DNA of 30,342 nucleotides from Candidatus Sigynarchaeum calidifontis (GTDB lineage Archaea; Asgardarchaeota; Lokiarchaeia; Sigyniarchaeales; Sigyniarchaeaceae). The stretch covers positions 1 to 30,342 of the forward strand of contig JAUQYZ020000071.1 in NCBI GenBank assembly GCA_030587475.2, read 5' to 3'. The notes beneath the pieces are model-generated. The model had not been told where the DNA came from, made no database searches, and saw nothing but the letters and a program-made list of their open reading frames with translations. Positions 16,012 through 19,018 of this stretch are shown piece by piece; the stretch's first letter is position 1, and the number at the start of each line of letters is the position of its first letter. The position numbers and the translations under genes are program-made.

Positions 16012-17241
16012 TCAAGAGCGCTGGTTTTTCTCCATCTCCCCTGCTAGCGCTAACAAGGTGTTACACCGGTGCACGAGCTCTTGCTCGGCAAGAGCAGACG
16101 CGATGTCCCGCAGCGTCGCGACCATGATCCGCCCGAGGGCAATCCTATCCGATGATAGCATGCTCGCGGCCCGCTTGATCATGGCGTCCACCATCCCCCG
16201 TTCGCGCGCTGCCGCGTCGCCGGTTCCGCCAGCGCCTACCTGGACGCGGAGCTTGAGCGGGATGGCGAGGTACGGGAGGTAATACGTCCGTGGCGGCACG
16301 ATGGCTGGTTCCCCGGTCGTTCCCCCCACGATGGCCCGGCCGGTCTTGGCCATGAGGTCGTCGATCAACTCGGCCTCTAGCTGCCGTGCAAAGATGGCGG
16401 CGTCGAGGGTGCCGGCCACGTTGCCGATGATGCCATCGAGAACAAGCTTGCCGGCGATATTTTTGCCTCCCGTGCCGGGAGCGCTGCTGGATTGCGAGAT
16501 GTGCAGTTGGACCCGTGCAAGGATCATCCTCTCGTCTGCGAACTTCAAGTTCTTCGCCGGGAGATCTCGTATCGCGACGCGCTTCTCGATCTTGAGGGCT
16601 TGCGTCGTATCGCCGGAAAGTATCTTTGCGGGGATCATGGCCGCGGCATCATTGCCATCGCCCATGATGCGGCAAAAATCGATCGTGGCACCCGGCCAAG
16701 CGGCGCGGAACCCATCGAGCAACATAGATGATACCTGGGGGAGAATAGGCTTCGCTGCATCCACCAGCACCGAGTATTCGATCGTTGCCTCGGCACGTAT
16801 GAGTTGGATTCGCCCGCCGGCATCGAGGCTCATCGATGGCTCGAACTCGGCGAGTTTCTTGCCACCCTCGTGCCGGTACCACTTGGTCTTGCTGCCATTC
16901 GTCACCGCGCTCAGCAACCGCGGGTAGAGCCGGGCCATGCTGATGGCCGTCTCGTCGTCGGTCGACGAGTGAAAGACCTCGCCGGGATGCGAGTGATAGA
17001 TGCCCACGAACCCGATACCCTGCGGCAATGATGATGCAAGCTCCTGGATTTCCCGGATGTCTGGCCGCGCGCCGACCTCGTGTTGGGTGGTGTACCGCTC
17101 GCACGCGATTGCCGACACGACGAGCAAATCGCCGGCCGGCGTCTCGTGGCCGACCAGCCACCCGTAAATCTCCTTCGATGAGGTCCGGGCGTGTGCCTTG
17201 ATGAACTCCTCGATCCAGTGGTCGACGTGGACTCGTGGCAT
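16012..17241 (-). CDS. JAB/MPN+ (JAMM) metalloprotease with ~270-aa C-terminal extension
   Basis: Start ATG 17241 with AAGGTGA upstream, 22 nt after the E1 stop. Glu24 (KEIYGWLVG) and GIYHSHPGEVFHSSTD give H83, H85, S92 and D95, a complete JAMM metal site with spacing one residue shorter than canonical. Confidence 0.88.
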   Translation of the reverse strand: MPRVHVDHWIEEFIKAHARTSSKEIYGWLVGHETPAGDLLVVSAIACERYTTQHEVGARPDIREIQELASSLPQGIGFVGIYHSHPGEVFHSSTDDETAISMARLYPRLLSAVTNGSKTKWYRHEGGKKLAEFEPSMSLDAGGRIQLIRAEATIEYSVLVDAAKPILPQVSSMLLDGFRAAWPGATIDFCRIMGDGNDAAAMIPAKILSGDTTQALKIEKRVAIRDLPAKNLKFADERMILARVQLHISQSSSAPGTGGKNIAGKLVLDGIIGNVAGTLDAAIFARQLEAELIDDLMAKTGRAIVGGTTGEPAIVPPRTYYLPYLAIPLKLRVQVGAGGTGDAAARERGMVDAMIKRAASMLSSDRIALGRIMVATLRDIASALAEQELVHRCNTLLALAGEMEKNQRS

Positions 17242-17263
17242 AGCATTCACCTTGATCCAAGTA

Positions 17264-18025
17264 TTATTTCGTGATGGACTGGACGTGCTTGCAAGCCGGG
17301 CAGGACGGATCCGGTTTCGTCTGATGTGCCGTGAATTCCCCCGTGAGGGCATTGCACGTGATATAGGAAACGAGCGTGCCGAAACCGAGCAAGTACTTGA
17401 GCGCTTCTTGCGCCTGGATCGATGCGATGATGGCCATGGTCGTGGGCAGCGACGCCGTGCACCGCTGACCCTTCTCGCGTGGCATCGATGCGGTGATGGA
17501 GCTCCGGCAAGCGATGCAAGCGGTCCTGCCCGGAATTATTGGTTGCACGTGGCCCGACAGCGCCGAACGGGACGTGCCCCCGTCGATCAGGACGACGCCA
17601 TTGTTCACGCATTTCTGGTTCACGAACATGCGGGCTGGTAGATTATCCATGCCCATGAGCACGGCATTGCTCTTCTTCACCCGCGACTCGAACACGTCCT
17701 CGTTGTCGGGCATCATGATGTCGCCATGGTGTGGCTGGGGATGCACGTCGCCGTTGATCCGCTTGATGCGCTCCGCGATGACCTCGACTTTCGGCCGGCC
17801 GATGTCTTCTGGCTGGAAGCCAAGGCGGTTCAAGTTGACCGTGTCCACGACGTCCATGTCAAACAAGTATAGCGTGCCCACGCCGCACCGCGCGAGCATC
17901 TCCGCCGTGAGCATCCCCAAGCCTCCGACACCGGCTATGGTTACGGACTTGCGGAGCAAAGCATCCCACTTGATATTGTATCCAAACGCGTTGATTGCAT
18001 TTAACCTGTCATAGCGTCGTTGCAT
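17264..18025 (-). CDS. uba5: UBA5-like E1 activating enzyme (ThiF/MoeB/E1 superfamily)
   Basis: GVGGLG nucleotide-binding loop and Zn ligands CIAC/CPAC. UBA5-like segments YDRL, TAEMLARCG, NLNRLGFQP, ALSGHVQPIIPGRTACIAC, CTASLPTTM (catalytic Cys189; human CAASLPTTM) and ALKYLLGFGT. Confidence 0.9.
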   Translation of the reverse strand: MQRRYDRLNAINAFGYNIKWDALLRKSVTIAGVGGLGMLTAEMLARCGVGTLYLFDMDVVDTVNLNRLGFQPEDIGRPKVEVIAERIKRINGDVHPQPHHGDIMMPDNEDVFESRVKKSNAVLMGMDNLPARMFVNQKCVNNGVVLIDGGTSRSALSGHVQPIIPGRTACIACRSSITASMPREKGQRCTASLPTTMAIIASIQAQEALKYLLGFGTLVSYITCNALTGEFTAHQTKPDPSCPACKHVQSITK

Positions 18026-18080
18026 CGTCTATCCATCCTGCATCGTGCCAGCCTGGCGATCCGCGTGCTGCCAGATGCAA

Positions 18081-18112
18081 CATTGATTAAGTTGGCGGGT
18101 ATTAAGTATATC
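18081..18112. promoter_or_regulatory. AT-rich candidate divergent promoter of the Ubl cassette
   Basis: GATTAAG and TATTAAGTATAT lie inside the 124-nt gap between the E1 ATG (18025, minus) and the Ubl ATG (18150, plus). Confidence 0.4.
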
Positions 18113-18149
18113 GAAGAACCACGTGTAAATCCCACGAGCGGTGTCTATC

Positions 18150-18428
18150 ATGAGCCAAAGTTCGAACTCGACCCTCTATTTCACGACTCGCATCGGGCCG
18201 GAGAAGAAAACCATCCCTTTTCCAGCCAATGATTCACTTTCCTTCCTGGATGTCGTTTCCGAGCTGTGCAAGAAGCTGAGCTGGGAGATCGAGACCCTTT
18301 CGCTGGCAACGCCCGCCGGCAGCGTGCTCACGGCGTCCGACTTGAACAAAACCGTCGGGAGAGTCAAGAGCGAGTTCGGCACGGCCTTCGAGATCATCGA
18401 CCAAGGAGACGTCGGTGCGCGCACGTGA
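18150..18428 (+). CDS. ufm1: UFM1-like ubiquitin-fold modifier precursor (92 aa, ends VG-ART)
   Basis: [25 protein letters not shown] aligns without gaps to remembered human UFM1 [36 protein letters not shown] and LSLATPAG parallel FTAVLKFAAEEF and SAIITNDG. Lies between E1 and E2 genes. Confidence 0.85.
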   Translation: [92 protein letters not shown]

Positions 18429-19018
18429 GCAGCAAGGACGAGGGCAAGGCGTGGCAGGTCGGGCTTGCAGAACTCCGGGTCCCTCCATTCCAGGCAAAAT
18501 GGGAATCGGTAGGTCCTAAGCATCCCGAATGGAACGACCGCATCAAGCTCGAGATACACGCGCTCGGAAAATACATCGAGTTCCTCCGCAGCGAGAATGC
18601 CAAGCCTTGGTTCTACATCAAGCCCGACGTGAAATACAAGGGCGTCATCTGGCGGGGATACATCGCCATCCCCTCCAGGCTGGACCTCAAGTTTGACCTC
18701 ATCATCGTCCTGTCAAGCGAGTATCCGCGGGTCATGCCGAAAGCATTCATCGAGGACAGCCTCATCGAGCTCGCCGGCGCAAAGATCTACGTGAAAAACC
18801 GGTTCCCGCCGAAACAAGACCCCGTCACGAAGGAGTGGGAAAAGGATCCCGAGACCGGGAAGTCATTCGTCATGATCTGCCACGATCACATGTCGGAAGT
18901 GCAAGGCGCGTGGATGCCGAACCTGGGCATCGTTCATTTCTTCATCCGTGAAGTGTGGTTCTGGTTCGCGGCCATGCAAAACACGATCTTGCGGGAATAC
19001 GAGAAACGTGGGGTATAG
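18425..19018 (+). CDS. ufc1: UFC1-like E2 conjugating enzyme (197 aa)
   Basis: The GTG start overlaps the Ubl TGA. GPKHPEWNDRIKLEIHALGKYIE...WF...GVIWRG, FDL......YPRVMP, GAKIY, ICHDH (Cys152) and LGIVH match remembered UFC1 [24 protein letters not shown]...WF...GTRWFG, FDI....YPTTAP, TAKMY, ICLTDH and FGLAH. No canonical E2 HPN motif, as in UFC1. Confidence 0.88.
   Translation: MSSKDEGKAWQVGLAELRVPPFQAKWESVGPKHPEWNDRIKLEIHALGKYIEFLRSENAKPWFYIKPDVKYKGVIWRGYIAIPSRLDLKFDLIIVLSSEYPRVMPKAFIEDSLIELAGAKIYVKNRFPPKQDPVTKEWEKDPETGKSFVMICHDHMSEVQGAWMPNLGIVHFFIREVWFWFAAMQNTILREYEKRGV

Follow-up and report, generated by a model that had tools for sequence, protein, structure and literature searches.

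Does a four-gene cluster in the archaeon Candidatus Sigynarchaeum calidifontis encode a working ubiquitin-like protein (Ubl) conjugation system homologous to the core of eukaryotic UFMylation? UFMylation, in which the Ubl UFM1 is handled by the activating enzyme (E1) UBA5 and the conjugating enzyme (E2) UFC1, is an essential pathway that serves ribosome quality control at the endoplasmic reticulum, where ribosomal uL24/RPL26 is modified, and it is linked to human disease. Its protease and ligase parts in eukaryotes are UfSP1/2 and UFL1-DDRGK1-CDK5RAP3, respectively. The cluster lies in a stretch of 30,342 nucleotides (the window; GenBank assembly GCA_030587475.2, contig JAUQYZ020000071.1, positions 1 to 30,342 of the forward strand) belonging to a genome assembly of 4.99 Mb in 269 contigs, which is 89% complete with 5% contamination. 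We consider it likely that the locus is such a system, on the basis of homology, predicted fold, conserved catalytic residues, synteny, gene fusions and co-occurrence, and from these we infer the chemical steps, the role of a fifth protein and the targets.

Gene organization of the cassette

The cassette consists of the following features, with the basis of each assignment in brackets.

16012-17241, minus strand: JAB/JAMM (MPN+) zinc metalloprotease, 409 amino acids (Pfam Prok-JAB, JAMM motif)
17264-18025, minus strand: UBA5-type minimal E1, 253 amino acids (PDB match, tree)
18026-18149: divergent intergenic region of 124 nucleotides, presumed to hold the promoters of both gene pairs (bases read)
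18150-18428, plus strand: precursor of a Ubl modifier with a predicted UFM1 fold, 92 amino acids, ending IIDQGDVG(89)-ART (AlphaFold/Foldseek)
18425-19018, plus strand: UFC1-type E2, 197 amino acids (Pfam UFC1, PDB profile search)

The original prediction, made from the letters alone, had described four open reading frames (ORFs) in two divergent pairs, and the ORF list and the bases bear it out. The E1 stop codon (TAA, 17266-17264) and the JAB start codon (ATG, 17241-17239) are separated by 22 nucleotides, the Ubl stop codon (TGA, 18426-18428) and the E2 start codon (GTG, 18425-18427) overlap in the sequence GTGA, and the gap between the pairs measures 124 nucleotides. The catalytic residues that it named (E1 Cys189, E2 Cys152, Ubl Gly89 and JAB E24, H83, H85 and D95) are right by count on the translations. 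Inside the 22-nucleotide spacer there is a GGTGA Shine-Dalgarno-like motif, and putative TATA-like, AT-rich stretches can be read in the divergent gap at about 18081-18093 and about 18101-18111. GC content around the locus is 55-60%. The closest named proteins are those of Candidatus Sigynarchaeum springense, whose Ubl and E1 are 96% and 91% identical, respectively.

Affinities of the E1 and E2

By sequence, the E1 is UBA5-type. It belongs to the ThiF family of Pfam, carries a GVGGLG nucleotide loop and four zinc-site cysteines (C170, C173, C242 and C245), and places its catalytic Cys189 in the crossover loop, within GQRC-TASLPTT, where it aligns with the motif around the catalytic cysteine of UBA5, C250 (PMC11601596). 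The best PDB match is human UBA5 (6H78; E=4e-50, 174 bits), whereas no other E1-type protein scores above 79 bits (NAE/UBA3 79, MoeB 73, ThiF 65). After its Asgard orthologues, which are 45-91% identical, the nearest relatives are eukaryotic UBA5 proteins, with 41-43% identity across 94% of the E1 length; the eukaryotic matches are about 330-440 amino acids long, against 253 here, and the alignment ends with the adenylation domain. In a maximum-likelihood tree, the UBA5 family, in which eukaryotic UBA5 and a prokaryotic clade of short proteins join the Asgard sequences, stands apart from the three other ThiF paralogues of the genome (support 100/96). Annotation by JGI already names the E1 as UBA5.

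The E2 is UFC1-type on comparable grounds. Its score with Pfam UFC1 (PF08694), aligned over profile positions 14-95, is 30.2 bits, above the cutoff of 25. When the PDB was searched with a profile of its 22-sequence family, all matches were UFC1 (26 sequences, E 2e-6 to 1e-5), and canonical UBC proteins were absent. Cys152 is the sole cysteine of the protein and lies within a MICHDH motif that is invariant in the 22 sequences. A 14-residue insert ahead of the active site is specific to the Sigynarchaeum clade in the family alignment. In a collection of 5.8 billion proteins the family forms 36 clusters, every named one of which is Asgard, and database annotation already carries precomputed Pfam UFC1 matches on members of the family. 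Separately, a UFC1-like E2 domain was seen inside an 897-residue open frame of another genome (L063/L044, G153:C100, E2 match 36139-36687); its fetched flank yielded no Ubl, E1 or JAB gene.

A modifier with a predicted UFM1 fold

The Ubl is UFM1-like by predicted fold only, and by sequence it matched no named protein. A single-sequence model was too poor to use (predicted local distance difference test, pLDDT, 59.5) and was replaced by an AlphaFold model built from a 14-sequence alignment (pLDDT 82.6, predicted template-modelling score, pTM, 0.71). When this model was compared with the PDB by Foldseek, the 12 best matches were all UFM1, with template-modelling scores (TM) of 0.76-0.90 by target and root-mean-square deviations (rmsd) of 1.4-2.5 Å; ubiquitin, SUMO, the ubiquitin of Caldiarchaeum and the Ubl of the bacterial Bil system scored lower. 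In every family member the sequence closes with IIDxxxVG, after which come 0-4 further residues or the E2. Such Ubl-E2 fusions form one continuous ORF in several lineages, and six representative clusters consist of them, which argues for a functional tie between the Ubl and the E2.

The original prediction had held that each part resembles its UFM1-pathway counterpart specifically, rather than a generic ThiF, UBC or ubiquitin protein. For the E1 this stands on sequence score and tree, and for the E2 on a Pfam match above cutoff and a family profile that found only UFC1. For the Ubl the resemblance holds in the predicted fold and fails in the Pfam, PDB and exhaustive profile searches, whose results are given below with the other points that weigh on the reading.

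Two further observations concern Ubl domains elsewhere. A UFM1-like Ubl domain lies at about residues 195-280 of three longer proteins (P0056, P0060 and P0070, of 285, 874 and 611 amino acids), and weaker, distant Ubl relatives are fused to TIR, SIR2, LRR or TPR domains.

Could the small protein instead be a sulfur carrier? In a system of the MoaD/ThiS and MoeB/ThiF type, the E1 would thiocarboxylate it in the service of tRNA or cofactor thiolation, and the "E2" would have nothing to do with the system. Among NCBIfam models, those of ThiF and MoeB do match the E1 best, with every score far below cutoff, and just upstream of a related cassette in one Thermoplasmata locus sit a MoaD-like gene and a rhodanese-bearing, MoeZ-type E1 gene. 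Yet the E1 favors UBA5 over MoeB and ThiF by about 100 bits, is separated from the ThiF paralogues in the tree and is without a rhodanese domain; the Ubl ends in a single glycine plus a tail, not in GG, and is predicted to adopt the UFM1 fold. The co-translated E2, with its invariant cysteine and its fusion to the Ubl in relatives, would have no role in sulfur transfer. We rejected this explanation, which we regard as barely credible, on the affinities of the E1, the fold and tail of the Ubl and the presence of such an E2.

The JAB protease

The JAB protein has a catalytic domain at about residues 1-125 with a complete JAMM motif (E24, H83, H85, S92 and D95). Pfam Prok-JAB matches residues 9-106 with 39.5 bits, the best NCBIfam match is the haloarchaeal desampylase, below cutoff, and the start at 17241 is backed by alignment of homologues. 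Behind the catalytic domain lies a C-terminal extension of about 285 residues, for which the ESM Atlas gave no usable fold; it is conserved in part with a long JAB protein of Thermoplasmata (30% identity over residues 18-224).

The best argument for JAB as the maturing enzyme comes from the Ubl-E2 fusions, since the C-terminal glycine of a fused Ubl has to be released by a protease. UfSP-type Peptidase_C78 (PF07910) had no match in the 89%-complete genome, an absence that is soft because the controls were also unmatched; the result fits JAB as the protease.

Conservation of the cassette and a fifth gene

Conservation was surveyed in 400 Asgard genomes and one metagenome scan, and the locus was fetched from 21 Asgard genomes other than that of the window. 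The E2, and with it the cassette, occurs in 38 of the 400 genomes and in 21 of 85 genera; the cassette is therefore an optional accessory system of about one tenth of Asgard genomes and not a core Asgard trait. Synteny across Asgard genomes had been proposed as a check, and it was found: E1, JAB, Ubl and E2 stand together in 18 of the 21 fetched genomes, so the four-gene arrangement is not due to chance. The usual layout is a single strand with the order fifth gene-E1-JAB-Ubl-E2, and the divergent layout of the window is shared with the cultured Lokiarchaeum ossiferum. In two loci, extra DNA of about 2.6 kb (L059, about 3906-6491) and about 1.8 kb (L061, about 3550-5352) lies between E1 and JAB.

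Across lineages with 35-60% identity, the catalytic cysteine, the VG end of the Ubl and the JAMM residues have all been kept, which points to purifying selection on catalysis. This conservation also bears on the possibility that the cassette is a decayed or non-conjugating remnant, in which the Ubl would be a built-in or non-covalent domain and the E2 a scaffold. Ubl-E2 fusions are common, as such a remnant might suggest, and a few genomes (G261, G277) hold only E2 fragments with internal stops. All four ORFs of the window are intact with complete active sites, however, and together with the conservation across lineages this makes decay a very improbable explanation.

The original prediction had called the cassette self-contained and minimal. 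That description did not survive the comparison of genomes, in most of which a fifth gene adjoins the cassette. In the window this gene is displaced.

5632-7026, plus strand: fifth gene, candidate adaptor or E3-like (ligase-like) factor, 464 amino acids, or 474 amino acids from a TTG at 5602 (homology to a Lokiarchaeum ossiferum gene)

It lies 9 kb upstream of the cassette, and its product is 33% identical over the full length (E=1e-88) to that of the next gene downstream from JAB in L. ossiferum. Homologues were present in 15 of the 21 fetched loci, in 8 of them directly upstream of E1. The full-length family was found in 37 of the 400 genomes, of which 33 also have the E2; conversely, 33 of the 38 E2-positive genomes have the fifth gene. 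The protein has a conserved N-terminal region of about 330 residues without an assigned family. At the C-terminus, most lineages have a four-cysteine zinc ribbon, and the Sigynarchaeum and Loki proteins carry an EAP30-like tandem winged helix, the EAP30 match being weak (E=0.0026); lineages with the zinc-ribbon form often have a separate winged-helix gene nearby.

We regard the fifth protein as a candidate adaptor or E3-like factor. A profile search of the PDB and the ESM Atlas found no significant relative. Identity with the N-domain of Cdc48/VAT was considered and is not established: a six-frame search of the genome with Pfam CDC48_N and CDC48_2 (E<=1) recovered three real Cdc48 homologues and not 5632-7026, an hhalign comparison of the family with Cdc48 N-domains was co-linear and weak (E=0.012, probability 3.5%), and VAT-N appeared in the PDB profile search at E=0.32. 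Prediction of a complex of E2, Ubl and residues 1-345 of the fifth protein gave 0.69, compared with 0.70 when the E2 was replaced, and is evidence neither way.

Profile positions of about 190-358 of the fifth gene (the middle/C-terminal subdomain plus zinc ribbon) have weak matches (E 1e-6 to 1e-19) inside longer proteins of 230-1110 amino acids in 19 genomes without the cassette (Asgard families f28 and f31). This suggests that the part may be a mobile subdomain.

Proposed mechanism

The following steps would account for the gene content. The JAMM protease would remove the ART tail of the 92-residue precursor, or in relatives cut the Ubl off the Ubl-E2 fusion, and thereby expose Gly89. The UBA5-type E1, probably as a homodimer, would adenylate Gly89 and then form a thioester on Cys189. 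The Ubl would move from there to Cys152 of the UFC1-type E2 and then onto lysines of target proteins, probably aided by the fifth protein as an adaptor, receptor or E3-like factor. The JAMM protease may also remove the Ubl again.

Several points weigh against reading the locus as a working system homologous to UFMylation. The first concerns the Ubl sequence. Pfam Ufm1 (PF03671) did not match it, and of 14 family members one matched at E=0.1; neither phmmer nor the family profile found UFM1 in the PDB; and an exhaustive profile search of 1.84 billion representative proteins returned no UFM1 match. The second concerns the E1. In eukaryotes the C-terminal tail of UBA5 binds UFM1 and UFC1, and this tail, with its UFM1-interacting and UFC1-binding parts, is absent from the E1, which ends just past its CPAC zinc motif; the hand-over from E1 to E2 must therefore differ from that in eukaryotes. 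In the E2, the Pfam UFC1 match stops before the active site, which follows the insertion. Furthermore, at 89% completeness and 5% contamination of the genome, absences such as that of UfSP are soft. Beyond the Ubl itself, Pfam Ufm1 also found no match in the genome, and among about 50 representative Ubl relatives from the exhaustive search there was none at E<=0.01.

UFL1-like and ubiquitin-type genes elsewhere in the genome

A winged-helix protein resembling UFL1, DDRGK and PCI proteins is encoded on a separate contig (C101; L006:3-1418, minus strand; partial, 472 amino acids) and matches the PCI, E3_UFM1_ligase and DDRGK models. This UFL1-like family occurs in 177 of the 400 Asgard genomes, as against 38 for the E2, and in one Asgard family in 118 of 135 genomes as against 21 for the E2. 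Where the UFL1-like gene and the cassette share a contig, they are tens of kilobases apart. The UFL1-like protein is thus distributed independently of the cassette and is apparently not coupled to it.

Contig C26 (about 6006-7690; L010, L014) carries a canonical ubiquitin-type pair, in which a UQ_con E2 (91 bits) comes after a 411-residue E1 of the ThiF family; this makes the cassette a distinct second system. On contig C61 (about 1970-3697; L009, L013) there is a single frame of 985 residues with two ThiF domains, reminiscent of a pseudo-dimeric UBA1-type E1.

A related cassette in Thermoplasmata and a possible origin of UFMylation

Source names identify the prokaryotic clade of short proteins in the E1 tree as Thermoplasmata. 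Metagenome loci of this group (L067-L085), which belongs to a different archaeal phylum, carry a cassette of the same four families as that of Sigynarchaeum, with the order Ubl-E2-E1-JAB on one strand. Its Ubl has 80 residues and ends in IDPSIVG followed by the stop codon, so that it is encoded in mature form, whereas the Sigynarchaeum Ubl carries the ART tail. Its E2 is compact (167 amino acids), is without the insertion, matches Pfam UFC1 with 33.9 bits over profile positions 11-116, and finds UFC1 in the PDB at E=2e-4. The E1 is UBA5-type with 250 amino acids, and the extension of the long JAB protein is partly homologous to that of the Sigynarchaeum JAB. An hhalign comparison of the Asgard and Thermoplasmata Ubl families gives a weak alignment that spans both from end to end (E=8e-4, probability 24%). 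No homologue of the fifth gene was detected in the Thermoplasmata cassette loci.

In one of these loci, L067, sulfur-carrier genes stand directly upstream of the UFM1-type cassette, so that two systems lie side by side. They include a cysteine-synthase-like gene, a MoaD/ThiS-like carrier ending in GG and a MoeZ-type E1 with a rhodanese domain (L067:1307-3127 and 296-1222).

The E1 tree places eukaryotic UBA5 as the sister group of the Thermoplasmata clade (support 100/99), with both on long stems; an alternative tree that unites eukaryotes with the Asgard E1 is not rejected by the approximately unbiased test (p-AU 0.13). Given this value and the long stems, the donor lineage may have been either Asgard or Thermoplasmata. 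The proposal that the cassette is a candidate ancestral state of the pathway was accordingly not supported: the distribution in Asgard is patchy (38 of 400), the cassette is also present in Thermoplasmata, and it is with the Thermoplasmata clade that UBA5 groups, the Asgard alternative having the p-AU given above.

A possible history, which we put forward tentatively and with some doubt, is that the archaeal five-gene module represents the prokaryotic stock of eukaryotic UFMylation. The trio of E1, E2 and tag would have been inherited or transferred as a unit from an Asgard or Thermoplasmata-like donor, the JAMM protease would later have been replaced by UfSP, and unlinked Asgard winged-helix proteins of the UFL1/DDRGK1 type would have been recruited as E3. 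Its SPFH and ESCRT-II-like neighbors hint that the module may originally have served a membrane-associated quality control of proteins.

Comparison with known systems

The cassette is like the eukaryotic UFM1 pathway in three parts. Its E1 is of the UBA5 orthologue type, with the same catalytic-cysteine and zinc motifs, its E2 is of the UFC1 type, and its Ubl combines a predicted UFM1 fold with a precursor end of VG plus an extension, comparable to the VG-SC of UFM1. It differs in that the archaeal genes form an operon, that a JAMM metalloprotease stands in place of the UfSP cysteine protease, that the E1 is without the tail that binds UFM1 and UFC1, and that an insertion precedes the active site of the E2. 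The archaeal Ubl moreover has no detectable sequence similarity to UFM1, and it is the fifth protein that is linked to the cassette, with the UFL1-like protein unlinked.

Among archaeal systems, the operon of Caldiarchaeum subterraneum encodes ubiquitin, E1, E2, a RING E3 and an Rpn11-like JAMM protease that matures the pro-Ubl (PMC3082918; PDB 6FNO/6FNN). It shares with the cassette the combination of Ubl, E1, E2 and JAMM protease, and its logic of a JAMM protease maturing the tag is the best precedent for the role proposed for JAB. The Caldiarchaeum system is nevertheless of the ubiquitin/UBA1/UBC type with a RING E3, whereas the Sigynarchaeum cassette is of the UFM1/UBA5/UFC1 type without a RING protein, and Caldiarchaeum ubiquitin fits the Ubl model less well than UFM1 does (TM 0.66-0.72, rmsd about 3 Å).

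Bacterial Bil, Bub and CBASS Cap2/Cap3 systems (PMC11601596; PDB 8TYX) resemble the cassette in their compact operons of Ubl, E1, E2 and JAB and in their patchy, accessory spread. They are bacterial, defence-associated families, whereas the Sigynarchaeum E2 and Ubl match no model in PADLOC. BubCD is without the crossover-loop cysteine that the Sigynarchaeum E1 has (PMC11601596), and the Bil Ubl fits the Ubl model poorly (TM about 0.6, rmsd 3.7 Å).

These likenesses raise the question of whether the same conjugation chemistry might serve defence against viruses or mobile elements, with the Ubl placed on invader proteins or on an immune effector and the fifth protein acting as sensor. The spread over 38 of 400 genomes and 21 of 85 genera would suit an accessory defence system, as would an operon architecture like that of Bil and CBASS, and the JAB and E1 have weak PADLOC matches to CBASS JAB and E1-E2 models. 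One or two of 14 flanks contain BREX parts, and the distant Ubl relatives include fusions to TIR, SIR2 or LRR domains. The failure of the Ubl and E2 to match any model counts against a defence role, with the limit that the PADLOC-DB of 2023 may lack Bil and Bub. Furthermore, the 112 flanking ORFs from 14 loci include few defence families, and their "Cas12f" matches are IS605 TnpB transposases. The recurrent neighbors are instead SPFH/Band-7, EAP30-like winged-helix, small-GTPase and TPR genes, and the neighbors in the window are membrane proteins, glycosidases and an H+-translocating pyrophosphatase (H+-PPase). On balance we think a role in defence unlikely. The SPFH/Band-7 membrane-scaffold gene was present in 13 of the 21 other loci and is not in the window. 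IS605/TnpB-like genes account for 4 of the 112 flanking ORFs.

The cassette is thus a real and intact archaeal UFM1-type conjugation module that belongs among the prokaryotic Ubl-E1-E2-JAB operons, with a mechanism proposed from homology and context. A study of 2023 described UFM1, UFC1 and UfSP2 as restricted to eukaryotes, reported UBA5 from prokaryotes and traced UFL1 and DDRGK1 to Asgard archaea (PMC10183829). In 2026, Ufm1 homologues were reported from nine Asgard clades and from no other prokaryote, in a paper that does not mention UFC1, UBA5, JAB or gene context (PMC12962969). The guess in the original prediction that Asgard homologues of the pathway might already have been listed was therefore correct for Ufm1, and no paper was found on the cassette or its JAB partner. 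In a full-text literature search, whose coverage stops short of subscription journals, neither an archaeal UFC1 nor the operon was the subject of any paper found.

The locus and its relatives show that in archaea a single operon already unites the tag, E1 and E2. The protease beside them is of another kind, a dedicated fifth protein accompanies them, and Thermoplasmata have a related operon. The origin of UFMylation thereby becomes experimentally approachable, as the system comprises four or five small soluble proteins and one carrier, L. ossiferum, is in culture. The tail-less E1 and insert-bearing E2 may show how the Ubl is handed from E1 to E2 without the UBA5 tail. The Sigynarchaeota version combines the divergent layout, the 14-residue insert of its E2 and a fifth gene that is displaced by 9 kb and fused to winged helices.

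Flanking genes in the window

The surrounding genes of the window are ordinary chromosomal genes, among them those for the H+-PPase, glycoside hydrolases, a subtilase and membrane proteins. No tRNA genes or Rfam matches were found within the window. Multi-pass membrane proteins without a Pfam family are encoded on both sides of the cassette, at 13469-15916 (plus strand, 815 amino acids) and 19141-20016 (plus strand, 291 amino acids). The latter is followed at 20146-21846 (plus strand) by an ORF of 566 amino acids, which has no Pfam match and for which a longin/DENN-like identity had been proposed from the sequence.

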